This document shows, piece after piece, positions 30,310-64,000 of a stretch of DNA of 64,000 nt. Source of the stretch: Cyclobacteriaceae bacterium. Lineage in GTDB: Bacteria > Bacteroidota > Bacteroidia > Cytophagales > Cyclobacteriaceae. Numbering within the stretch: the stretch's first letter is position 1; each line of letters starts with the position of its first letter. Under the pieces are notes generated by a model. That model was given only the letters and a program-made list of their open reading frames with translations. It was not told the origin of the DNA and ran no database searches. A program made the translations under genes and the position numbers. The stretch spans positions 15-64,014 of the forward strand of contig JBLICU010000005.1 in assembly GCA_047632435.1 (NCBI GenBank). The letters run 5' to 3'.

Positions 30310-33300
30310 ATGTTAAAGTCATTTCTCCATGTGATAATTCTTAACCTAGCTGTTTTAGCAGGTTCATTCGGGGCAGATCAAATACAATTTGATCATATAA
30401 TTGAACTTCCCGACAACCCTGTCTTTTGTATAACACAAGACAAAAAAGGTTTTATGTGGTTCGGAACCAAAAATGGTCTTTTGAAATTTGATGGTCATGA
30501 ATTAACCACATTTAACTCAAGTGATGACGACAGCACATCCCTCACCAATGATTGGATTTGGTCAATTTACTGTGACACCCGGTCTGAACTATGGATCGGC
30601 AGTGCGGACGGTCTTAATCTTTGGATAGACAAAGAAAATCGATTTCAAAGAATCGTACTTCCTTCATCGGAAAACGGGAAGAACAAGCCAGTTACCATAA
30701 GAAAAATATATGAAGATAAACAAGGAAATCTGTGGATCGGAACCAATCATGGCCTTTATATTAAATCCTATGATAATCCGGATTTCCATAAATGTGACTT
30801 AAGCTATGGACTGAGTCAATTAACAGATTATGATATCAAAGAAATATTCGAGGGCTCGAACAATCATTTGTATGTCGCAACACAATTTGGTATTTCCTCA
30901 ATTGTTAATAGAAAACTTTCGTATCAAACAATTCCGGCCAACCTAGTTCTTAAAATTGATAATCAAATTGAGGATACAAGATCTGTATACTCCGACGCAA
31001 TAAATGATGTTTTTTGGATCGGAACCCAGTCAGAAATGACTGGTCTTATAAAATCACAAAACCGAAGTGGTAAAAATGAGATAATTACGTTAAAAGGATC
31101 CGTCGAAATTAATAGTATCAGAATAATCCGAAATTTTGGAGATAATACCCTTTGGTTAGGAACAATGAACGGGTTGATACAACTAGATACTCTGACTAAT
31201 ACTACTGAAAAACACTTAAACCACCTTTCAATTAGAGATATTTACCAGGATATCGAAAAAGGGCTCTGGGCGGCCACATACAATGATGGAATATATTACT
31301 ATTCGCCAAATTCCAACCGATTTGAGCATATTTATGAATACGCCAAGCCATTCTCCACACAAGAACAAAACCGAAGTGAGGTGGTCACTGATGTCGTACA
31401 ATCGAAGGACAATCAAATATGGATCGGTACAGAATATGGTCTCAAAGTCTATAGGCCTGACCACAAGAATTTTCCTATTCATTTAAATAGAACAATGCAA
31501 ACAGCTATTGTCAATGATCGTGTAAAATGTCTTGAATATACGAATGATAATATGCTTTGGGTGGGGACATTTAATGGAATTAGCTGTCTCGATTTAACAA
31601 ACGGAAATATAAAAAACTATGTTCCAACATCTAACCCTAAAAATCAGGGTTGGAATGAAATCCATGATCTAATAAAGATTAAGGAAGAGGTGTGGATTGG
31701 TACAAATGGTGGTGGGGTATTTTGCCTTGATAGAGATTTTCGCTTCACACAACATGCCGACCATTTTATTCGAGGAGCGAATTATGTAAACGCTATGCAT
31801 TCCTTTACTGATAGTATCATTTGGATAGGCTCAAATGCCGGATTAAGTGCTATCAAACCTGATGGTAGGGAATTTAAAAAATTTGGATCCAGCAATTATA
31901 TGTTTCCAGAGGTGAACGTAATTTCCATAACACATGATAATAAAAATAATTTATGGTTGGGTACTGAAAGATCAGGACTGATTTACTTTGATCCACAGTC
32001 TTTCGATTTTCTAAGGATCAACAAGGAGAATGGTTTACCGGATAATAACATAAAGTCGGTACAAATTGATGTATCTCAAAACCTTTGGGTCACCACACAA
32101 CAAGGACTTCTAAACATTTCTCTATCGCCCAAAGAAGATCTTCAATCAACATCTTTTGAGGTTTATGATTTTTCTATCAATACAGATTTTGGCAAACCAC
32201 TATTCTTAAGTAATAGCACAACCAAAACGTCATCTGGAGAAATACTTTTTGGAACACATCATGGTATTACCTATTTTGATCCATCTCAAATATCAAGTTC
32301 CCGCAAGTACCCTAAAGTATGGATAAGGGATATCAGTATAAACCAGCAAAAAATAACCATTAACAAGGATTTATCATTGAAATATGGCAATACTGAAGAA
32401 TTGCTTGTGTTGAGTCTGGAACATTACGAGTCTGTTCTATCGTTTTACTTCACGGGCATTAATTATAGTAATCAAGATGAGCTTTATTATGCATACAACA
32501 TAGATGGAATTAATGATAGATGGGAGATAATTAACAAACAGCGTCAGCTAAGCTTCAATTACCTACCACCAGGAAAGTATACATTAAGACTTAAATCAAG
32601 CAATTCAAAACAAAATTGGGGAAGTGACTACACCGCATTAGACCTCATTATAAATCCTCCTTTTTATAAGTCGCTGATTGCTTTTCTTATTTATGGGGTA
32701 ACCATTTTAGCACTACTTTATATATTCTTCTATTACTCTTCCAACTGGCAAAAAATGAAAAATCGCCTTGTAATCGAAGAACTTAATAAGAACAAAGAAT
32801 ATGAACTTCATCAGTTAAAATCGGAGTTTTTTATTAATATTTCTCATGAGCTCAAAGCACCATTGACGTTAATTCTTGCCCCAGTTGAGGATTTACTAGC
32901 TCAAAAAATTGAAAATACTGGAGTGCGCAACCGATTAAAAATGGTCAAACGAAACGCTGAGAGGATTTTGAAATTGGTAAATCAAATTGTGGATGTAAGG
33001 AAAATTGAAACCTCTCGTGAGAGCTTAAATGTAGCTAAATACGACATTATAGCATTCATTCATGAGGTTTCTTCAGTGTTCAATGAATTATCCAGAATCA
33101 AAAATATTGAATTCAATATAAGTTCTAGCAGTGAAAATATTGATCTTTGGTTCGATCGAAATAAATTAGAAACAGCCATTTCGAATCTCCTCTCAAATGC
33201 GTTTAAATACACCAAAGAAAACGGTAAAATTGAAGTGTCTATTGTCACTCAAAAAAGGTCAAAAGGGTTAGATGAAGATGATCAGGTTAATATTATCATT

Positions 33301-34389
33301 GAAGATAATGGGAAAGGAATAGCTCAGGAAGATATCCCACATCTCTTCGACCGTTTTTATCACATTTCAAATAGAAATAAACGTCTTTCTATAGGTGATG
33401 GCATTGGGTTGGATTTGGCTAAAAAATGTATCGAAATACAAAAAGGTTCAATAAAAATTGAAAGTCTTCAGGAAAATGAAAGAACAAGTGGTCTTACTAG
33501 AATCACTATTTCCTTAAAACGAGGAAATCAACATTTTGATGATAATGACGTAACAAATGAGCCGTTACATCATTCATCAACTAAAGACCCTGATCTCAAT
33601 GACTATGCTCTCATAAACCTCATTGATGCAAAAGCTAGCGATAGCAATATTGATGACTATTCCATTTTGATTGTAGATATCAACTCTGAATCGATTCAAC
33701 AAATTCGTGATATATTTTCAAATTGCAATCATATATATGACACTTCTGATGGTTTGGAAGCATGGAAATTGACTCTGGATATAATTCCTGACATTGTAAT
33801 TAGTTCAGAAAGTGCCGGCACAATTGATGGAGAAGAATTATGTCATAGAATAAAAATAGATGAACGCACATGTCACATTCCTGTAATTCTTCTATCTGAA
33901 CAAAATCAATTTAATAATCAAGCTGAGTTTGTGCCTGATGAGTTTATTGCTAAACCAATTAATGCGGATTTTCTAAAGCAGAGAGTTGAATACTTTATTG
34001 ATCAAAGAAACAGAATAAGACGACAATTTGAAAAGAAATCAATATTGAAACCCAATCAGATAACTTCTTATGATGAGAAAATGTTAGATAGCGTAATCAA
34101 CTATATTGAGGATCACCTGTCCGACCCTAATCTATCTGTAGAGCGTATGAGCAAAGAAATTGGGATCAGCAGGGTTCATTTTTATAGAAAAATAAAATCA
34201 GTAATGAACATGTCCCCTAATGAATTCATCCGATCCTATCGAATAAGAAAAGCGGGACAATTGCTTGAACAGAAAAAACTTAATATTTCGGATGTTCGGA
34301 TGATGGTTGGTTTCAATGATGCAGATTACTTCAGATCTTGTTTTAAGAAAGAATTCGGTGTAAATCCTTCGGATTTCATGAAGGACTAA
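30310..34389 (+). CDS. Hybrid two-component system (beta-propeller sensor, Y_Y_Y, TM, HisKA, HATPase, atypical REC, AraC HTH)
   Basis: Repeated LWIGT propeller blades, YLPPGKYTLRLKSSN, SHELKAPLT, NLLSNAFKYT, DNGKGI and AraC (SKEIGISRVHFYRKIK...GFNDADYFRSCFKKEFG). Confidence 0.95.
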   Translation: MLKSFLHVIILNLAVLAGSFGADQIQFDHIIELPDNPVFCITQDKKGFMWFGTKNGLLKFDGHELTTFNSSDDDSTSLTNDWIWSIYCDTRSELWIGSADGLNLWIDKENRFQRIVLPSSENGKNKPVTIRKIYEDKQGNLWIGTNHGLYIKSYDNPDFHKCDLSYGLSQLTDYDIKEIFEGSNNHLYVATQFGISSIVNRKLSYQTIPANLVLKIDNQIEDTRSVYSDAINDVFWIGTQSEMTGLIKSQNRSGKNEIITLKGSVEINSIRIIRNFGDNTLWLGTMNGLIQLDTLTNTTEKHLNHLSIRDIYQDIEKGLWAATYNDGIYYYSPNSNRFEHIYEYAKPFSTQEQNRSEVVTDVVQSKDNQIWIGTEYGLKVYRPDHKNFPIHLNRTMQTAIVNDRVKCLEYTNDNMLWVGTFNGISCLDLTNGNIKNYVPTSNPKNQGWNEIHDLIKIKEEVWIGTNGGGVFCLDRDFRFTQHADHFIRGANYVNAMHSFTDSIIWIGSNAGLSAIKPDGREFKKFGSSNYMFPEVNVISITHDNKNNLWLGTERSGLIYFDPQSFDFLRINKENGLPDNNIKSVQIDVSQNLWVTTQQGLLNISLSPKEDLQSTSFEVYDFSINTDFGKPLFLSNSTTKTSSGEILFGTHHGITYFDPSQISSSRKYPKVWIRDISINQQKITINKDLSLKYGNTEELLVLSLEHYESVLSFYFTGINYSNQDELYYAYNIDGINDRWEIINKQRQLSFNYLPPGKYTLRLKSSNSKQNWGSDYTALDLIINPPFYKSLIAFLIYGVTILALLYIFFYYSSNWQKMKNRLVIEELNKNKEYELHQLKSEFFINISHELKAPLTLILAPVEDLLAQKIENTGVRNRLKMVKRNAERILKLVNQIVDVRKIETSRESLNVAKYDIIAFIHEVSSVFNELSRIKNIEFNISSSSENIDLWFDRNKLETAISNLLSNAFKYTKENGKIEVSIVTQKRSKGLDEDDQVNIIIEDNGKGIAQEDIPHLFDRFYHISNRNKRLSIGDGIGLDLAKKCIEIQKGSIKIESLQENERTSGLTRITISLKRGNQHFDDNDVTNEPLHHSSTKDPDLNDYALINLIDAKASDSNIDDYSILIVDINSESIQQIRDIFSNCNHIYDTSDGLEAWKLTLDIIPDIVISSESAGTIDGEELCHRIKIDERTCHIPVILLSEQNQFNNQAEFVPDEFIAKPINADFLKQRVEYFIDQRNRIRRQFEKKSILKPNQITSYDEKMLDSVINYIEDHLSDPNLSVERMSKEIGISRVHFYRKIKSVMNMSPNEFIRSYRIRKAGQLLEQKKLNISDVRMMVGFNDADYFRSCFKKEFGVNPSDFMKD

Positions 34390-58230: not shown

Positions 58231-60933
58231 TTATTGATTCTTACTTGACTCGAATCTCTCCTTGCTATGTTCTTTCATTTCACTGGGAGACTTCCCAAAC
58301 CGCTTTTTAAATAATTGACTGAAATGGGCCAGGTTTTCCATACCGCATTCGTAGGCTATTTCGGAGACAGTATTTTCTTTCGAAGACTCTAACAACAAAC
58401 GCGCTTTTTGCAGTCTTATTTCCCGAATATATGAAGCAGGAGGTTGACCTGTCACCAATTTTACCCGCCTATTAAAATTGCGCTCACTCACTGTAAAGTG
58501 ATAAGCCATATCCGTATTGGAAAGATTCCGATTCCTCAAATTTTCAATAATATAATTGTCCAACTCCAATTTGAAAGATTTTTGCTTTTCGATAGAAAGA
58601 TCAGGAATAATACTTCCTGCAAACTCTATCCTCTGTCTCGATATTTCAAGTAAGTTTTTTATCCTCACGCTAAGTTCATCCAGATCAAAAGGCTTGATGA
58701 TGTAGTCATCCACACCCAGGTTCAGCACTTTTACTTTGTCCTCACTTAATGTTCTTGCAGTAAGGAATATGATGGGGATATTGGCCCATTTGTTTTGTGC
58801 TTTAATTTGTTGTGCCAATTCATAACCATCCATTTCTGGCATCATATAATCTGTGAGGATCAGATCAGGAAGCAACGAATTATTAAGCTTTTTTAAGGCA
58901 CTTTCACCATCAGCCGCTTCCACTATATTATACTCCGTCAGTTTATCTGCCAGATAGCCCCGCATGTCAGCATGATCCTCCACAATCATGAGGGTGAGTT
59001 TAGACGCATCTATTAGGTTTTCAATATGCTCTTGGTTGTCTGTATCAGGGTCTTTTTGGATTGAATTTGGGAAACACAAGCTAAACGTTGAGCCCTTACC
59101 AAGCACACTTATGCAATTCACCATCCCTTCATGTAATTCCACAAATTCTTTGACTATGGAAAGACCAATTCCAGTGCCGATTTCAGGCTTGATGGTAGCC
59201 GATTGAAAGAAGCGATCAAAGATTCTTGGAAGCTCTTTTTTTGAGATTCCTCTCCCTTCGTCGCTGACTTCTACCCAGAGCTCGCACTCTTTTTCCATAA
59301 CTTTAATAAGAATATTTCCAGGCTCATCACTGTATTTGATAGCATTGGAAATCAGGTTGATCATTATTTTTTCAAACTTGTCCTGATCCACCATAGCCAT
59401 GGTGGAGTCATGCGCATGGGTAATAAAAATGGTTTGCCGCTTTTGCCGAGCAAAGGGATCTAAAGTCTCCTTGATATTTTTGATGACCTGTACCACATCC
59501 ATGGGCTGACGGATAATTCCCAACTCACCTTTGTCCAATTTGGCCAAGTCGAGCATCTCATTAACCAGCTGAAGTAGGTATTTGCCATTTTTCAGAGACA
59601 AATTCAATTCCTTTTTTACCTCATCAGATAATTCACCATTCTTGATTGTGTTTTCTAGCGGAGATAGGATCAGCGTAAGTGGTGTTCTTAGTTCGTGCGA
59701 TACATTATTAAAGAACTTGGTCTTTAGTATCTCAATTTGCTTCATTTGCTCCTTTTCTTCCCTCAATTTTTCTATGGTCACATCTCTTCTGATAGATTCG
59801 TCTTGCAACCGGAAATAGTTACGGAACAAGTTTAATGTGAAAAGAGTATCACGTAATATAAAACCTAGAAACACTGCGTTAGTTGTGACAAAGTGATGAA
59901 CAATAAAACCGCTTAAGGCTAATACCATAACCAAAGCTGCTAGAATAGATAATCCATTTGCTAGTATAAATATTTTACACTTCTGTGAGTCAATCCTCCA
60001 TGTGATAGCAACTGAATAGATAATGATAACTAAGCTTATAAGAAAATAGGAAGTAGAAATCCATGGAAAAAAATGACCATTTGAAATAAATATTGACGAA
60101 ATAACTAACGGAAAAATTGGAAAAACTAAAATGTAATGAATTGTCTTTGACGACTGATATACGTTTAGAAAATACGCTGTAAATAAGTTAAATGAATAGA
60201 TAATTAGTACAGCAATTATTAGTTCTGTATAATTCAATTCAATCGCTGACATGCCGATCATATCTACAAAAATTTGGGCATTAAAGTTGGATAAAAAGAT
60301 GCCTGTGAGAATGAAAAACGCATAGGAATATCCTGTCTTACTTGGTTTTAGGTAAATCAAGAAGAGATTGATCATCAAAATGATCAACTCCATTCCAGTC
60401 AATAATGTGTAAGTGGTAAGAATGTTTTTTGATTGATAACCAAGATCTTCTGCAGTACAAACTTCGATATGTGAGAGGGATCTATTATAAATCGAATTCC
60501 CTGTTTCGCTAATTAGTTTAATATAAATGGGGTCTTTAGTTTTTTCTATTTTAAGCACATGCCGATAGAATCCTCTCTTGTAGGAACGGTTTTCAAAATC
60601 TACTAATCTTCCTGTAATGGAAAATGGCTGTGTGCTTCCGCCAGAATAAGCTTCAATTCGATCAAAAAAATTGGAAAACAATAAATAATCCGCGCCCTTT
60701 AGTATACTCGGATCAATTTTAATCCAATAGAAATTGATAGTTGAAGACAGGTCCGCATAGTCTTCGAACTGAATTTCACCCTTTTCTTCTAAAGTAAATA
60801 GCTCCTCAAAAGACAAATTAGTAGTATCCGCATAGATTTTAAACTGATCATAGCTTAACCTTTCTCCGGCCTTAGCAGATAGAAATGAAATGAAGGTTGA
60901 TCCAATCAGGATAAGTCCAAAAATAGAGCGCAT
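58231..60933 (-). CDS. Hybrid sensor/regulator: periplasmic domain + 7TM (7TMR-DISM-like) + HisKA + HATPase + REC + AraC HTH
   Basis: Signal peptide, seven hydrophobic helices, SHELRTPLT, NLISNAIKY, intact REC (PDLILTDYMMPEMDG) and AraC C-terminus. Confidence 0.92.
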   Translation of the reverse strand: MRSIFGLILIGSTFISFLSAKAGERLSYDQFKIYADTTNLSFEELFTLEEKGEIQFEDYADLSSTINFYWIKIDPSILKGADYLLFSNFFDRIEAYSGGSTQPFSITGRLVDFENRSYKRGFYRHVLKIEKTKDPIYIKLISETGNSIYNRSLSHIEVCTAEDLGYQSKNILTTYTLLTGMELIILMINLFLIYLKPSKTGYSYAFFILTGIFLSNFNAQIFVDMIGMSAIELNYTELIIAVLIIYSFNLFTAYFLNVYQSSKTIHYILVFPIFPLVISSIFISNGHFFPWISTSYFLISLVIIIYSVAITWRIDSQKCKIFILANGLSILAALVMVLALSGFIVHHFVTTNAVFLGFILRDTLFTLNLFRNYFRLQDESIRRDVTIEKLREEKEQMKQIEILKTKFFNNVSHELRTPLTLILSPLENTIKNGELSDEVKKELNLSLKNGKYLLQLVNEMLDLAKLDKGELGIIRQPMDVVQVIKNIKETLDPFARQKRQTIFITHAHDSTMAMVDQDKFEKIMINLISNAIKYSDEPGNILIKVMEKECELWVEVSDEGRGISKKELPRIFDRFFQSATIKPEIGTGIGLSIVKEFVELHEGMVNCISVLGKGSTFSLCFPNSIQKDPDTDNQEHIENLIDASKLTLMIVEDHADMRGYLADKLTEYNIVEAADGESALKKLNNSLLPDLILTDYMMPEMDGYELAQQIKAQNKWANIPIIFLTARTLSEDKVKVLNLGVDDYIIKPFDLDELSVRIKNLLEISRQRIEFAGSIIPDLSIEKQKSFKLELDNYIIENLRNRNLSNTDMAYHFTVSERNFNRRVKLVTGQPPASYIREIRLQKARLLLESSKENTVSEIAYECGMENLAHFSQLFKKRFGKSPSEMKEHSKERFESSKNQ

Positions 60934-61136
60934 GATTAAAAATAGAGCTATTTCATTCCTCCAACAACCCGCTTGACTATTGGCGAAAGGTGAACTTAAT
61001 GATATTCAGACCAGTCAGAAAGTCTAAAACACCCCTTGCTATGAATTAGGGCCTAAAAAGACTCAAATTTTTCTTTTATAGCAAAAAATGGCATGTCGCA
61101 AATGAGATAAAGAATGTCAGGAATTTGATAGTGAAC
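60790..61136. repeat. Dispersed duplication, copy 1 (kinase 5' end + divergent promoter region)
   Basis: Aligns by eye with ~61870-62221 (offset 1090, then 1085 after a 5-nt indel). Example: AAACTGATCATAGCTTAACCTTTCTCCGGCCTTA is identical at 60841 and 61931. Confidence 0.9.
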
Positions 61137-61656
61137 CTCTACTAAACTTTTTTGTATTAACTCAAGGTCAGTATCAAGGCAATAACAATTGAAACAACAC
61201 TATGAGGAGAACTTCTCTCACATGATTGCGCGCCCACTGAAAAATCTGAAATGCAGAAATCATAAGTTTTGAACTCCCCGATTTACCTTTAAAGGCCAAT
61301 TTTACTTTCAAAATCAGATTGACCCAAGTGAAAATGGAGTTTCTGGGGGCTCATGATTTAAATGAGTCATGTGATAGATTCTAATTTTAGGAGAATGTCA
61401 ATATAATTAATCCACTAGCTCTTTACTCTTCAATATCTCTTTTAGGGTATTGGTCAAAATCATCCTTTTGCCAGATGCAATTCGGTAGTCAATTCGTCAA
61501 TTTTGAATTCAAATACGCACTAAACAGAATATATTCATCACCAGTAAGACAACAAATATGGTACTATTCGGACGCCTAGGCAGCATCGATAGTATCAAAT
61601 TATAATGTAATGAATGCAGTCAATGACATAAGCTTAAGCCGTAAAACTGTACACCA

Positions 61657-61815
61657 ATGAAAAAACAAAAACTGTCCTTTAATAAATCTTTGATCAGGTT
61701 CCATAAGTACCGCAGAAAACTCCAACGACTGGAGTTAGCCTGGCACAACCAGCGCCGACAAGGTATGCTGCAAAAGCACATAGAAAGGCTACATGGATGG
61801 CTCAGCGCTATGATA
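61657..61815 (+). pseudogene. 5' remnant of a probable large secreted protein (basic N-terminal leader)
   Basis: MKKQKLSFNKSLIRFHKYRRKLQRLE...LQKHIERLHGWLS is an amphipathic basic leader. It then runs directly into the antisense strand of the kinase remnant. Confidence 0.45.
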
Positions 61816-62018
61816 CTCGCGCAAAAACCAAATCAGAGAGTTCTCCAAATCGGCCAAACACAATTTTGCCCTGGCTTGCTAATCTTGATTGCTCCTCAAA
61901 AGACAGATCAATGGTATCGGCAAAGATCTCAAACTGATCATAGCTTAACCTTTCTCCGGCCTTAACAGATAGAAATGAAGGTTGATCCAATCAGGATAAG
62001 TCGAAAAATGGAGCGCAT
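61808..62018 (-). pseudogene. Truncated, frameshifted paralogue of the 7TM hybrid kinase 5' end
   Basis: ATG 62018 gives MRSIFRLILIGSTFISIC* (5-nt deletion relative to 60933). The other frame reads SFLSVKAGERLSYDQFEIFADTIDLSFEE versus SFLSAKAGERLSYDQFKIYADTTNLSFEE in the intact gene. Confidence 0.85.
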
Positions 62019-62221
62019 GATTAAAAATAAAGGTATTTCATTCCTTCATCAACTAGCTCGACTATTGGAGAAAGGTAAGCTTAAGCACATTCAGACCAGT
62101 CGGTAAGTCTAAAACACCCTTTGCTATGAATTAGGATCTAAAACGACTCAGATTCCTCTATTATAGCAAATAATGGCATGTCACAAATGAGATAAAGAAT
62201 GTCAGGAATTTGATAATGAAT
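61870..62221. repeat. Dispersed duplication, copy 2
   Basis: See copy 1 at 60790-61136. Confidence 0.9.
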
Positions 62222-62296
62222 CGGCTCTACCTTTATTCCTTAGCTATTTTTCGAATAGCAAAACCGGACACTACTTTTCACCCAATCAAAAATAAA

Positions 62297-64000
62297 ATGA
62301 AACACTTATTCTACTCTTTTCTACAATTGAAATCAAGTAAGCAAATTCAGAAGACCATTATGGTTTTTGTTTTAACACTTCTCTGTGGAAGCACATTCGC
62401 CCAGACGATCTCCATTCAGGGTGTTCTTCGCGATCCCAACGGACGATCTGTGGACGATGGATCTTACAGTGTTACCTTCAAAATCTATGATGCTGCAACA
62501 GGAGGCTCTACACTATGGACAGACACCTATACCAGTTTGCAGACCAAGCATGGAGTATTTCAAGCCAATTTAGGTGAGCAAACCTCATTAGATGGTTTGG
62601 GATTTGATACACAGTATTTCGTAGGAGTAACAGTAGAGGCATATGCTGAAATGACGCCAAGGATTGCTTTAACAATCTATCCATATGCGAAAGCGATTCT
62701 TGGTCAAGATAATAAGTTCCCTTCCGTAGGAAATGTAGAAATGGCCACTGACGACTTCATCATTCATGAAGGAGAATTGAGATTAGCAGGAGCAGGTGGT
62801 AGAATATTATTCAATGACGGTACATCACTAAACACTGCTAATTTCGGCGGTCCAGCAGGCTCACTGCTCAATTCTTCTAATGTTAACATAAATGCGGACA
62901 ATATCGCCGACTTTTCAGGAGCAATCAATTTTCAGACACGTGGAACCACTAGAGCTTCGATTGCAAATAATGGAAATGCAACTTTCAATGGATCAATAAA
63001 TGCTGCATTTGGAATTTCGTCAGGAACTTACAATACCAGTATAGGATCAATAAATTTATATGGACCTGATGCTGCTTCTGCTTCTGGTGGTCAATTAAAT
63101 CTTTATACAAGCGACACACGGGCTACAGAAAAATGGTATATGCAACCGGTTGAAAACAATTTGATTCTCGGTCATGAAACAGGAGGAGCATTCCCCACTG
63201 TTGCAACTTTTAGTTCAGCAGGCACTACGTTAGCAGGTACTACTGTAATTGATGCATTGACTGTTTCATCAAGTACTACATTATCAGGTACTACTGTAAC
63301 TGATGCCTTGACAGTTTCATCAGGTACATTAACAGTTTCGTCAGGTTCGGTGGCAGTTGGTTCAAATTTTTCTGTTTCAGACAATGTTATATCAGCAGGA
63401 ACATCCAATACGACCAAAGGTATATTACAATTATATGGTTCTAATGGAGCAACCGGTGGCCAAGCAAATTTTTACACAAATGCAGGACAGGCTGTCTCAA
63501 AATGGTTTTTGGAAACCAATGAAAATGATTTCGCGATAGGTCACGAAAACGCAGGATCATTCCCTATTTCCGCATATTTTGATTCGAGTGGTAGTATTGG
63601 TATAGGAGATGATACACCTACTGAAGGCAGACTTGTTGTAAAAGGTTTAGGCGTAGGAGGTACCGTAAGTTTGCTTTCATATTTAGAGGGTGCTGGTGCT
63701 GGAAATACTCCAATTCCGAGTTTCTCGAGCGCTTTTGGTATTTATGCCGATGGAGGTGTTGTAAGTGAAGCTGGTTTTTACGTTATTTCTGATAAGAGGG
63801 TAAAAGAAATACAACGGAGGACAAATACGAGTGAGGATTTAGATGTATTCAGTAAATTAAACGTGACGGATTATGAATTTATCGATAAAGTTCAACACGG
63901 TGATAAAAAAGAGAAGAAGCTAATAGCTCAAGAAGTAAGAGCCGTTTACCCACAAGCAGTATCATTAAGTAAAGGAATTGTCCCGGATATTTATGCTAAG
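62297..64000 (+). CDS. Secreted phage-tail-fibre-like protein with peptidase S74 intramolecular chaperone domain (3'-truncated by window edge)
   Basis: Hand-translated 568 codons with no stop. Signal peptide ends ...GSTFA/Q, then an N-domain QGVLRD...YSVTFKIYDAATGG..LW...PR...YPYA and a G/S/T-rich shaft. C-terminus has the S74 signature FYVISDKRVKE (SD at 63788) and LIAQEV..VYPQAV. Confidence 0.88.
   Translation, partial: MKHLFYSFLQLKSSKQIQKTIMVFVLTLLCGSTFAQTISIQGVLRDPNGRSVDDGSYSVTFKIYDAATGGSTLWTDTYTSLQTKHGVFQANLGEQTSLDGLGFDTQYFVGVTVEAYAEMTPRIALTIYPYAKAILGQDNKFPSVGNVEMATDDFIIHEGELRLAGAGGRILFNDGTSLNTANFGGPAGSLLNSSNVNINADNIADFSGAINFQTRGTTRASIANNGNATFNGSINAAFGISSGTYNTSIGSINLYGPDAASASGGQLNLYTSDTRATEKWYMQPVENNLILGHETGGAFPTVATFSSAGTTLAGTTVIDALTVSSSTTLSGTTVTDALTVSSGTLTVSSGSVAVGSNFSVSDNVISAGTSNTTKGILQLYGSNGATGGQANFYTNAGQAVSKWFLETNENDFAIGHENAGSFPISAYFDSSGSIGIGDDTPTEGRLVVKGLGVGGTVSLLSYLEGAGAGNTPIPSFSSAFGIYADGGVVSEAGFYVISDKRVKEIQRRTNTSEDLDVFSKLNVTDYEFIDKVQHGDKKEKKLIAQEVRAVYPQAVSLSKGIVPDIYAK

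Follow-up and report, generated by a model that had tools for sequence, protein, structure and literature searches.

The locus

The window is the whole 64,000-nucleotide stretch of Cyclobacteriaceae DNA that was analyzed. Toward its end there is a gene for a hybrid regulator on the minus strand and, divergent from it, the gene for an S74 fibre on the plus strand, with a partially duplicated region between the two (Table 1).

Table 1. Features of the regulator and fibre locus, in window coordinates
Feature	Position	Strand	Basis
Hybrid one-protein two-component regulator, 900 aa	58231..60933	-	Pfam domains
AraC-type DNA-binding output (HTH_18), residues 810-888	58270..58506	-	Pfam
7TMR-DISM_7TM membrane module, residues 175-369	59827..60411	-	Pfam; AF2 model
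Extracellular sensor domain, residues about 23-160	60454..60867	-	AF2 model, Foldseek, hhalign
Repeat copy B1: regulator 5′ end, regulator's own promoter-like TATTTTTA 4 nt before ATG, operator-like box	60767..61140
Operator-like box copy 1, TGTCGCAAATGAGATAAAGAATGTCAGGAATTTGATA, two half-sites 21 nt apart	61094..61130	+
Spacer X, 516 nt, no ORF or detectable relative	61141..61656
Y′, 5′ fragment of a small gene	61657..61827	+	Similarity to paralogue Y
Regulator stub, codons 1-66 of the second copy	61826..62018	-
Repeat copy B2: regulator stub and control region, now serving the fibre operon	61857..62225
Operator-like box copy 2, one mismatch to copy 1	62179..62215	+
S74 fibre gene, 705 aa	62297..64000, continuing past the window end to 64414	+	Pfam, signal peptide

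The regulator consists of a signal peptide, an extracellular beta-sandwich, seven transmembrane (TM) helices, HisKA, HATPase_c, a receiver and an AraC-type HTH, in that order. HisKA, HATPase_c, Response_reg and HTH_18/HTH_AraC are all found above their Pfam cut-offs in the one polypeptide, and the membrane module (PF07695) scores 31.8 bits vs. a cut-off of 29, so that the gene is indeed the minus-strand 7TM-kinase-receiver-AraC regulator that a first-pass annotation of this DNA had described. The phospho-acceptors His413 (HisKA) and Asp695 (receiver) are invariant across 10 members of the family, as are E652/D653, K747, N530, D558-G562 and G586-L591, which include the N, G1 and G2 boxes of the kinase. 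At the level of sequence, the phosphorelay and the HTH are complete and intact.

The sensor domain is probably a divergent 7TMR-DISMED2-like beta-sandwich. An AF2 model of residues 1-380 (mean pLDDT 82.7) contains seven long helices, with GPCR-like fold matches in Foldseek, and the sensor part of the model matches the RetS periplasmic domain 3jyb with a target-normalised TM of 0.52 (prob 1.0). Using hhalign, the sensor and the DISMED2 domains of the G035 proteins align co-linearly with an E-value of 0.0035 but a probability of only 9%, and a Pfam scan does not detect PF07696 (7TMR-DISMED2) in the regulator. The Pfam search also gives no match in the regulator to a Reg_prop/Y_Y_Y or PBP-like periplasmic sensor. 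SusC and SusD are absent beside the gene, the neighbours of which are the S74 fibre, T9SS cargo and an amidohydrolase. The window happens to include an HTCS of the Reg_prop/Y_Y_Y type at 30310-34389, divergent from SusC/SusD, and the contrast drawn earlier between the present regulator and canonical HTCSs holds at least within the window.

On the other side, the ORF from 62297 has the signal peptide and the Peptidase_S74 domain expected of the secreted plus-strand protein proposed earlier as the target. The signal peptide is followed by a conserved N-terminal domain (residues 35-226), a variable shaft and the S74 autoproteolytic chaperone. Peptidase_S74 (PF13884) covers residues 498-555 with 29-30 bits vs. 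a cut-off of 22, and SDKRVK at residues 498-503 (Ser498 at nt 63788) conforms to the SDxxxK catalytic motif, which three fibre orthologues keep in the form SDxRIK. There is also a weak match to the MYRF ICA structure 7dc3. Members of the fibre family exchange their tips (S74 vs. Lcl_C, the latter in L031), and 6/7 of them match NF053851 Bdello_MAT_N, all weakly (best E-value 1.4e-5, 22 bits vs. a 60-bit cut-off). The fibre protein itself carries no T9SS C-terminal sorting domain as defined by PF18962/TIGR04183.

The operon continues beyond the window end. Another 26 nt after the fibre gene comes a gene for a 2344-aa protein with Laminin_G_3 and a T9SS CTD, and a third gene, overlapping the second by 4 nt, encodes 982 aa with He_PIG/cadherin domains and a T9SS CTD. 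The C-termini of these two proteins are Por_Secre_tail sorting domains (PF18962, TIGR04183). The three-gene operon recurs in several Cyclobacteriaceae genomes.

A conserved box in the control region

We compared eight control regions, two from this window and six from other records. All 8/8 have a 37-nt box in the same orientation, exactly 12 nt ahead of a TAnnTTTN element that faces the target gene, and in all of them two direct half-sites about 21 bp apart abut the -35 equivalent. The putative half-site consensus is TGGCAG-N15-TGGCAG, with TGTC in this genome; in L025 and L027 the box takes diverged forms that retain the 21-nt period. In the comparisons with L018 and L021, the box is the only intergenic similarity that blastn detects. 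Within the shared intergenic block that the first-pass annotation proposed to look for among relatives, this box is all the intergenic DNA that the compared loci have kept in common.

The genome of the window has two copies of the box, both at this locus. After copy 2 come the 12 nt and then TACCTTTA (62228-62235), a TAnnTTTG-like -7 element, with the fibre ATG 61 nt further on. After copy 1 the -7 element is degraded (TAAACTTT at 61143-61150). The assignment of a promoter is tentative, because the spacer between TTTG and TAnnTTTG is 15 nt, below the roughly 19 nt of Bacteroidota promoters. Paralogous fibre operons that have no such regulator also lack the box, which thus tracks the regulator and not the operon.

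The pairing in other genomes

Three orthologous loci, including the one in this window, have the regulator divergent from the same S74-fibre operon. At L021 the regulator is 82% identical and divergent from the fibre orthologue; at L019/L028 it is 53-57% identical and divergent from the fibre, a LamG protein (74% identical) and a He_PIG protein. Since these loci are orthologous, their pairing alone could be inherited synteny. Three other homologues are likewise divergent from exported or surface-protein genes, though not from the fibre operon, and in two of the three these include T9SS cargo: a 1853-aa Big_12 T9SS protein in G006, an FG-GAP/cadherin CHU_C protein together with PorP/SprF in L027 (where the regulator is 31% identical), and a 504-aa lipoprotein in L020. 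Recurrent pairing, on which the earlier proposal had been staked, is therefore found in two other records with the fibre operon and in three with other surface-protein genes. As read from these gene neighbourhoods, the partner class is surface or T9SS proteins in general, not the S74 fibre specifically.

What the regulator may do

That related genomes keep a box at the target promoter suggests that the regulator switches the fibre and adhesin genes on. We lean with some confidence toward this reading, in which the regulator is an AraC-type activator, specific to its locus, for surface fibre and adhesin genes; it is from comparative evidence that we infer DNA binding, activation rather than repression, and the existence of a signal. 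An extracellular cue would be sensed via the RetS-like beta-sandwich and the seven membrane helices, and the regulator would autophosphorylate on His413 and pass the phosphate to Asp695 of its own receiver. The AraC-type domain would then bind DNA, probably as a dimer, the candidate site being the two direct half-sites 21 nt apart, which lie directly against the -33 region of the divergent promoter. In this way the regulator would turn on the S74 fibre gene together with the two T9SS adhesin genes behind it, in the manner of AraC at araBAD. Export of the fibre would go through Sec, followed by trimerisation and by cleavage at Ser498 through the S74 chaperone that it carries, and the two giant proteins would exit through the T9SS.

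Two other readings are unlikely, to about the same degree. The gene order could be inherited without any regulatory link, the box being an autoregulatory site or a promoter element and the real targets of the regulator lying elsewhere. This would agree with the orthology of the fibre-paired loci, with AraC-family regulators often autoregulating, and with the position of the box, which in most loci precedes the regulator ATG by 130-165 nt. The box may act in autoregulation, either in place of target control or in addition to it. However, the distance to the regulator ATG varies (67-165 nt overall), whereas the 12 nt to the partner-facing -7-like element are fixed. Neither does the genome contain a further copy of the box that would mark remote targets, and in every regulator locus with enough flank the partner is an exported or surface protein, even where the gene is a different one.

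Alternatively, the regulator could repress the divergent operon, or a different protein could bind the box. The direction of control is not readable from sequence, and a protein on the proximal half-site, which overlaps the -33 region, might equally get in the way of the polymerase. But AraC/XylS-type activation classically uses a direct-repeat pair with a 21-nt period that ends beside the -35 equivalent, and the imperfect -7-like elements and the non-canonical spacing are as expected for activator-dependent promoters. Activation by the regulator continues to be the reading we prefer.

It is very improbable that a prophage or phage tail left the fibre and its neighbours behind, with the regulator an unrelated chromosomal gene next to them. 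The Peptidase_S74 domain typifies the tail spikes and fibres of phages, but this fibre has a Sec signal peptide and sits in a tight array with two T9SS cargo genes, no other phage domain appears among the Pfam-scanned ORFs in 20 kb, the same three genes are found together in other Cyclobacteriaceae, and the layout equals that of the cell-surface S74 MAT fibres of Bdellovibrio (PMC10769870).

A duplicated control block and a probable rearrangement scar

The regulator 5′ end and the control region form a direct repeat of about 350 bp with 81-89% identity (blastn E = 3e-116), which has only these two copies in the whole 3.9-Mb genome. The segment 60887-61135 aligns with 61972-62220 at 89%, and 60767-60889 with 61857-61979 at 81%. 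The right edge of copy B1 is sharp, at about 61140, and its left edge fades over 60760-60790. A 5-nt deletion after codon 16 frameshifts the regulator stub in copy B2. To this stub Y′ is joined head-on, at a junction at about 61826. The paralogue Y is found directly after the operon (window-equivalent 74766-74936); the two have about 66-70% nucleotide identity, and their substitutions by codon position (22/10/29) show a coding-like pattern.

That all this is an artefact of a fragmented assembly (198 contigs, with the related contig L018 ending 575 nt upstream of its regulator) is the least credible alternative, as collapsed or chimeric repeats would be near-identical, whereas these copies have 11-19% mismatched positions and a 5-nt indel between them, and lie 1.09 kb apart within an 84-kb contig with unique sequence between them.

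As for how the arrangement came about, the whole regulator-operon cassette may once have been duplicated in tandem. One deletion would then have taken out the first operon copy, and another would have joined the 5′ end of the small gene behind the operon to the second regulator copy at codon 66. The result would be what we see, one regulator and one operon about 1.36 kb apart with an operator copy at each. We infer this order of rearrangements from the sequence of the repeat locus, which on this account neatly illustrates how a cassette can be duplicated and the two copies then lose reciprocal parts. Given that the repeat is 87-89% identical and Y′ only about 66-70%, the duplication model needs gene conversion or selection as an extra assumption.

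The first-pass annotation had proposed two tandem cassettes, the first with the regulator and a target remnant and the second with the fibre and a regulator remnant. The two-cassette layout fits the head-on junction, and the regulator remnant is there, as the frameshifted codons 1-66. The target remnant of the first cassette did not stand up: spacer X has no similarity to the fibre gene, to the two downstream genes or to the post-operon spacer. Spacer X is presumably debris from the lost first operon copy.

Counting against the duplication model is that spacer X has no homology of a kind that would prove the loss of an operon copy.

Relation to known systems

To our knowledge, almost all that has been learnt about HTCSs concerns glycan sensors in charge of polysaccharide utilisation loci, very few of the DNA sites that they bind have been defined, and little is known about how the timing of T9SS adhesin or fibre display is controlled in Bacteroidota. 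The module at this locus is compact, seems to have a single target and comes with a conserved candidate operator. If the Bacteroidota-wide reading given below is true, the candidate operator TGGCAG-N15-TGGCAG and the single local target would make both DNA recognition by an HTCS and the control of T9SS cargo directly testable.

With Bacteroides-type HTCSs such as BT1754, or the one at 30310-34389, the regulator shares HisKA, HATPase_c, receiver and AraC-type HTH in one polypeptide and the divergence from the genes thought to be controlled. It differs in having a 7TMR-DISM sensor where theirs is a periplasmic beta-propeller/Y_Y_Y or PBP, and a fibre and T9SS adhesin operon as partner where theirs is SusC/SusD. 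AraC at araC-araBAD binds two direct half-sites about 21 bp apart, the proximal one beside the -35 equivalent. The likeness here is in the divergent regulator and operon and in the spacing and position of the direct half-sites; the differences are that the proposed switch is phosphorylation and not a small-molecule ligand, that the promoter is of the Bacteroidota type, and that binding is only predicted.

The 7TMR-DISMED2 + 7TM hybrid kinases RetS and LadS, from Pseudomonas aeruginosa, have ties to surface and lifestyle genes. The regulator resembles them in those ties and in its beta-sandwich, seven TM helices, kinase and receiver. Lacking a DNA-binding domain, RetS and LadS signal by way of GacS/Rsm (PMC11330419); in the present protein an AraC HTH is fused on as the output and presumably works at the neighbouring promoter. 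GppX, a non-PUL HTCS of Porphyromonas gingivalis and Tannerella forsythia, is also tied to T9SS cargo and surface proteins, as its loss alters the localisation of gingipain, a T9SS cargo, and surface proteins (PMC5706477). GppX differs in acting on dispersed targets, and no 7TMR-DISM sensor or dedicated neighbouring adhesin operon is reported for it.

The MAT (mosaic adhesive trimer) fibres of Bdellovibrio, in their S74 group, have a signal peptide, a conserved N-terminal domain, a variable shaft and an SDxxxK S74 chaperone (PMC10769870), the same domain order as here, and share the tip swapping. In contrast to them, the NF053851 match here is only weak, the Cyclobacteriaceae host is not a known predator, and the fibre gene is co-operonic with T9SS cargo. 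The locus thus offers a relative of the MAT fibre layout outside known predators.

Other 7TMR-DISM regulators near surface genes

Genes with PF07695 number only 6-8 per genome. A different 7TMR-DISM kinase, with HisKA_2, lies beside two of the paralogous fibre operons, in one case along with REC-LuxR genes; at L029, another paralogous fibre operon, a TPR protein alone is nearby. Among the distant 7TM regulator loci of the DISMED2 type, a small and non-random sample, 6/7 have large Ig-rich, T9SS or LamG proteins a few genes downstream on the same strand, and L040 has no obvious adhesin. Together with this locus, they are evidence that in several lineages 7TMR-DISM modules, as a second sensor type, are coupled to genes for surface structures.

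That 7TMR-DISM hybrid regulators are a Bacteroidota-wide one-protein class, switching on surface fibres and T9SS adhesins and not glycan loci in response to a surface, polysaccharide or cation cue, is an extension that we put forward tentatively and with more doubt than belief. If true, that MAT-like fibre operons are repeatedly and independently linked to 7TMR-DISM sensors, with AraC-fused or LuxR-type outputs, would indicate one shared signal.

The earlier description of the locus as a different regulatory module is right in that a 7TM sensor with a fibre partner sets it apart from the SusC/SusD-linked HTCS. It is not a new kind of module. One database search returned 97 clusters with the 7TM + HK + REC + AraC architecture for one DISMED2-type relative, so the architecture is not rare and the module is better described as an unstudied variant.

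The regulator and its sensor family

The window (C5:15-64014) comes from a genome of 3.9 Mb in 198 contigs with 39% G+C, and the features discussed here are collected in the table below. The regulator carries, all above the Pfam cut-offs, 7TMR-DISM_7TM (residues 175-369), HisKA (404-469) and HATPase_c (516-623) domains, followed in its C-terminal half by Response_reg (649-758) and HTH_18/HTH_AraC (810-888). Ten homologues all keep His413 and Asp695 unchanged, along with the acidic pair E652/D653, K747 and the N, G1 and G2 boxes. The first-pass annotation, which saw a 7TM regulator facing a fibre gene and a second cassette with just a remnant of such a regulator, was essentially right, both in the domains and in the remnant, a stub of codons 1 to ~66.

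Features of the regulator-fibre locus, with the canonical hybrid two-component system (HTCS) of the window
Feature	Position	Strand	Description
Canonical HTCS	30310-34389	+	Reg_prop/Y_Y_Y; divergent from SusC/SusD
Regulator ORF	58231-60933	-	900 aa
Repeat copy B1	60767-61140		regulator 5′ end and control region
TATTTTTA element, two copies	60937-60944; 62022-62029	-	4 nt upstream of regulator ATG
Box, two copies	61094-61130; 62179-62215		37-nt operator-like element
Inter-copy spacer	between repeat copies		516 nt; no ORF, no detectable relative
Y′ fragment	61657-61827	+	66-70% identical to start of Y
102-aa ORF	61657-61965	+	Y′ continuing antisense through regulator stub
Repeat copy B2	61857-62225		regulator 5′ end (stub) and control region
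S74 fibre gene	62297-64414 (end past window)	+	705 aa, signal peptide
LamG gene	beyond fibre end	+	26 nt after fibre; 2344-aa Laminin_G_3 protein, T9SS C-terminal sorting domain
He_PIG/cadherin-like T9SS gene		+	4-nt overlap with LamG gene; 982 aa
Y	74766-75367 (past window end; L001 16766-17367)		small degenerate gene directly after operon

An AlphaFold model of residues 1-380, built from 10 sequences (mean pLDDT 82.7), has a signal peptide, a beta-sandwich and then seven long helices. Its Foldseek matches are GPCR-like bundles; among the 50 listed, the only one that is not a helical membrane protein is the RetS periplasmic domain 3jyb (TM 0.52, target-normalised). The Pfam DISMED2 model finds no match in the regulator extracellular domain, and a profile comparison with DISMED2 gives a co-linear but weak alignment. 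From the 3jyb fold match and that weak co-linear profile, with the Pfam model silent, the extracellular domain is probably a divergent DISMED2.

The family of this sensor part is very small: 6 clusters in an index of 5.8 billion proteins, and 16 matches among 1.84 billion representatives, of which 4 are full-length (894-899 aa). Every full-length member has the identical domain set, and the homologues are labelled Cyclobacteriaceae by source. One 60-aa match coincides in position with the window's own regulator-stub ORF. A search of this genome found no paralogue of the fibre, and none of the sensor part apart from that stub.

The fibre operon and the genes that face the regulator

Given the spacing of its genes (26 nt, then a 4-nt overlap), the fibre, LamG and He_PIG genes form a single operon. 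This operon is rare: a full-length LamG orthologue is present in just three of 201 genomes of the family, namely this one and, in two copies each, G159 and G131. The fibre's Peptidase_S74 domain occupies residues 498-555, its SDKRVK motif starts at Ser498, and the protein has no T9SS sorting domain. Seven members of the fibre family have a conserved N-terminal domain in common (residues 35-226), a variable shaft, and a tip that is either S74 (SDxRIK) or, on contig G159:C24, Lcl_C. This is the domain plan of the Bdellovibrio MAT fibres, in which a signal peptide and a conserved N-terminal domain precede a trimeric shaft that ends in an S74 or some other tip (PMC10769870). The NCBIfam model Bdello_MAT_N matches 6 of the 7 members weakly, far below its cut-off, and we call the window fibre MAT-like by layout without filing it as a MAT member. 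A prophage origin of the locus was rejected.

Recurrence of the divergent pairing was named at first as a check, and the comparison bears it out: at every locus with sufficient flank the gene facing the regulator encodes an exported or surface protein. What lies on the regulator's other side is not conserved between loci.

Divergent partners of the regulator at homologous loci
Locus	Regulator identity	Partner
L019/L028 (G159:C4, Cyclobacteriaceae MAG)	53-57%	691-aa S74 fibre, 2348-aa LamG protein (74% identical), He_PIG T9SS protein
L021	82%	fibre orthologue, 61% identical; contig ends
G006/L023 (same genus)	54%	1853-aa FG-GAP/Big_12 T9SS protein
L027	31%	1359-aa FG-GAP/Calx-beta/cadherin CHU_C protein, then PorP/SprF and OmpA
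L020	59%	504-aa lipoprotein, lipocalin-like domain

The closest relative on a long contig (L018 1-575; regulator 83% identical) carries the box and ~100 nt of L021-like sequence, and no fibre start in the 370 nt before its contig end. That end may be a repeat-induced break, or the locus may be rearranged as in the window.

A box at the partner's probable promoter

A block shared between the intergenic regions had been suggested, and one exists. When the control regions of eight copies are aligned and then anchored on the box, nearly everything has diverged except one element, TGGCnnAAATnAGATAnnGAATGGCAGGAATTTGATA. It has the same orientation in 8/8 control regions, and exactly 12 nt after it, facing the partner gene, comes a TAnnTTTN octamer: TACCTTTA, TAGTTTTA (twice), TAACTTGG, TATCTTTG, TAGCTTTA and TACTTTTA, with the degraded form TAAACTTT in the orphan copy B1. 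The Bacteroidota -7 consensus is TAnnTTTG, which the octamer resembles. The box itself has two TGGCAG half-sites exactly 21 nt apart, in diverged forms with the same period at L025 and L027. Both half-sites of both window copies read TGTC, as opposed to TGGC at all other loci, and this coordinated change may have a counterpart in the recognition helix of the regulator.

In blastn comparisons of the window with L018 and L021, no intergenic sequence other than the box shows similarity. With as many as 8 substitutions allowed, the box occurs nowhere else in the 3.9-Mb genome beyond the two window copies; allowing up to 9, it is absent from the paralogous fibre operons that have no window-type regulator; and it is also found where the regulator faces genes other than the fibre. 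Its distance to the regulator ATG varies (67-165 nt), whereas that to the -7-like element is fixed. Because of this pattern of presence and this fixed spacing, the box goes with the regulator and lies at the probable promoter of the partner. A box so placed beside a promoter is the layout of class II activation by AraC/XylS-type proteins, and the window locus matches it.

On the regulator side, every homologous locus has CTAnTTTTA where the window has TATTTTTA, and a TTG lying 17-20 nt farther up is conserved too. If TATTTTTA is a -7 element, transcripts of the regulator would have little or no leader.

The doubled control region

The repeat block comprises the stub codons, the TATTTTTA element and ~200 nt of control region. 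The two copies, the only ones in the genome (blastn E = 3e-116), are 89% identical over 60887-61135 vs. 61972-62220, and 81% over 60767-60889 vs. 61857-61979. Identity falls sharply at ~61140 and fades near 60760-60790 on the other side. The stub in the second copy has lost 5 nt after codon 16 and with them its reading frame. An assembly artefact was rejected as the source of the doubled block.

A target remnant had been proposed for the first cassette, and this part is not confirmed: blastn, tblastx, blastx and a shuffled local-alignment test found no fibre or adhesin similarity above chance in the spacer. Rfam scans of both junction regions gave nothing relevant. What does remain is Y′, joined head-on to the regulator stub at ~61826. 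The differences between Y′ and Y number 22/10/29 at codon positions 1/2/3, a distribution that marks the stretch as having evolved while coding for protein.

Y encodes a basic extension at the N-terminus and a signal-peptide-like stretch, and its C-terminus resembles by eye a T9SS sorting domain; its first ~57 codons are the part paralogous to Y′. Since codon 24 is an in-frame TGA and the frame changes ahead of the C-terminal part, Y is probably a pseudogene or a carrier of assembly errors. The 102-aa ORF, open, very basic and without a Pfam match, starts with this formerly coding segment and is probably a fusion artefact of the deletion.

In the simplest history that we can reconstruct, the cassette in its entirety, from the regulator across control region and operon to Y, would have been duplicated in tandem, the first operon copy would have been lost, and a deletion would have spanned from codon ~57 of the first Y to codon 66 of the second regulator. 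At orthologous loci a single control region, 292-406 nt long, separates regulator from fibre, which supports the single arrangement as ancestral. Downstream of the operon there is no synteny between this genome and G159. Because the right edge of the duplication cuts into the -7 element, B1 probably no longer drives anything. The control block is far better kept between the copies (87-89%) than Y′ (66-70%), yet orthologous loci share only 37 nt of it, so we suspect gene conversion between the repeat copies, plus selection on the operator.

Proposed regulation

An external cue would act on the 7TM module, phosphate would pass from His413 to Asp695, and a dimer of the HTH domain would occupy the two half-sites and activate the divergent operon. 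The domains and the layout of the sites are as described; binding of the regulator to the box, the sign of the control and the signal are what we infer from them. On these comparative grounds, a regulatory link from the regulator to the fibre operon seems to us reasonably probable.

The contrast drawn at first with canonical HTCSs, which pair a beta-propeller sensor with a PUL, holds within the window itself, where the Reg_prop/Y_Y_Y HTCS faces SusC/SusD; Response_reg has no match in that protein at E <= 1e-5. HTCSs outside PULs are known, for instance GppX (PMC5706477). In the literature that we searched, 7TMR-DISM in combination with AraC, hybrid two-component or Bacteroidetes brought up no paper on a module of this kind, and S74 with T9SS none linking the two.

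Other 7TMR-DISM proteins beside surface-protein genes

Paralogous fibre operons have other neighbours. The one on G159:C24 is flanked by a TPR-HisKA_2 kinase, a REC-LuxR protein, a 639-aa 7TMR-DISM_7TM-HisKA_2 kinase and another REC-LuxR protein; that on G131:C62 by a 633-aa 7TM kinase orthologous to the 639-aa one of G159:C24; and that on G131:C37 by a TPR protein only. With just 6-8 PF07695 genes per genome, two separate adjacencies are unlikely to arise by chance. As members of the regulator's own sensor family these kinases were rejected (no hmmsearch match at E <= 10). The G159:C24 operon (L031, 209-10851) has two tandem fibres with Lcl_C in place of the S74 tip, preceded by the two kinase/REC-LuxR pairs, whose kinases carry different sensors, TPR in one and 7TMR-DISM in the other, which suggests swapping of both tips and regulators inside one fibre family.

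The architecture DISMED2, 7TM, HisKA, HATPase, REC and HTH_18 gave 97 clusters in one search, from Runella, Emticicia, Arcicella, Lacihabitans and Flavobacterium, and it occurs in ~5 of the 301 Cytophagales genomes sampled; it is fairly common yet unstudied. Within a few genes downstream of such regulators, in the same orientation, we find LamG_3, an LRR protein with a T9SS CTD and a 4246-aa CHU_C protein in Flavobacterium; a 1970-aa Ig_7 protein in Emticicia; a 1041-aa T9SS protein and a 3299-aa Ig T9SS protein in Runella; Ig/I-set proteins of 1537 aa and at least 1932 aa in genome G436; and an 851-aa protein with a HYDIN/Filamin-Ig protein of at least 1766 aa in genome G488. A further locus, in G413, is ambiguous. 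As the sample is small and was picked for long contigs, this association with large surface proteins is suggestive only.

Large proteins adjoining DISMED2-type regulators have, after the signal peptide, an N-terminal motif K-T-W-x-G-x-x-S/T-T-x-W (gene starts at L034 11435, L037 12075 and L038 7968), and they may constitute an unrecognised family of Ig-rich surface proteins.
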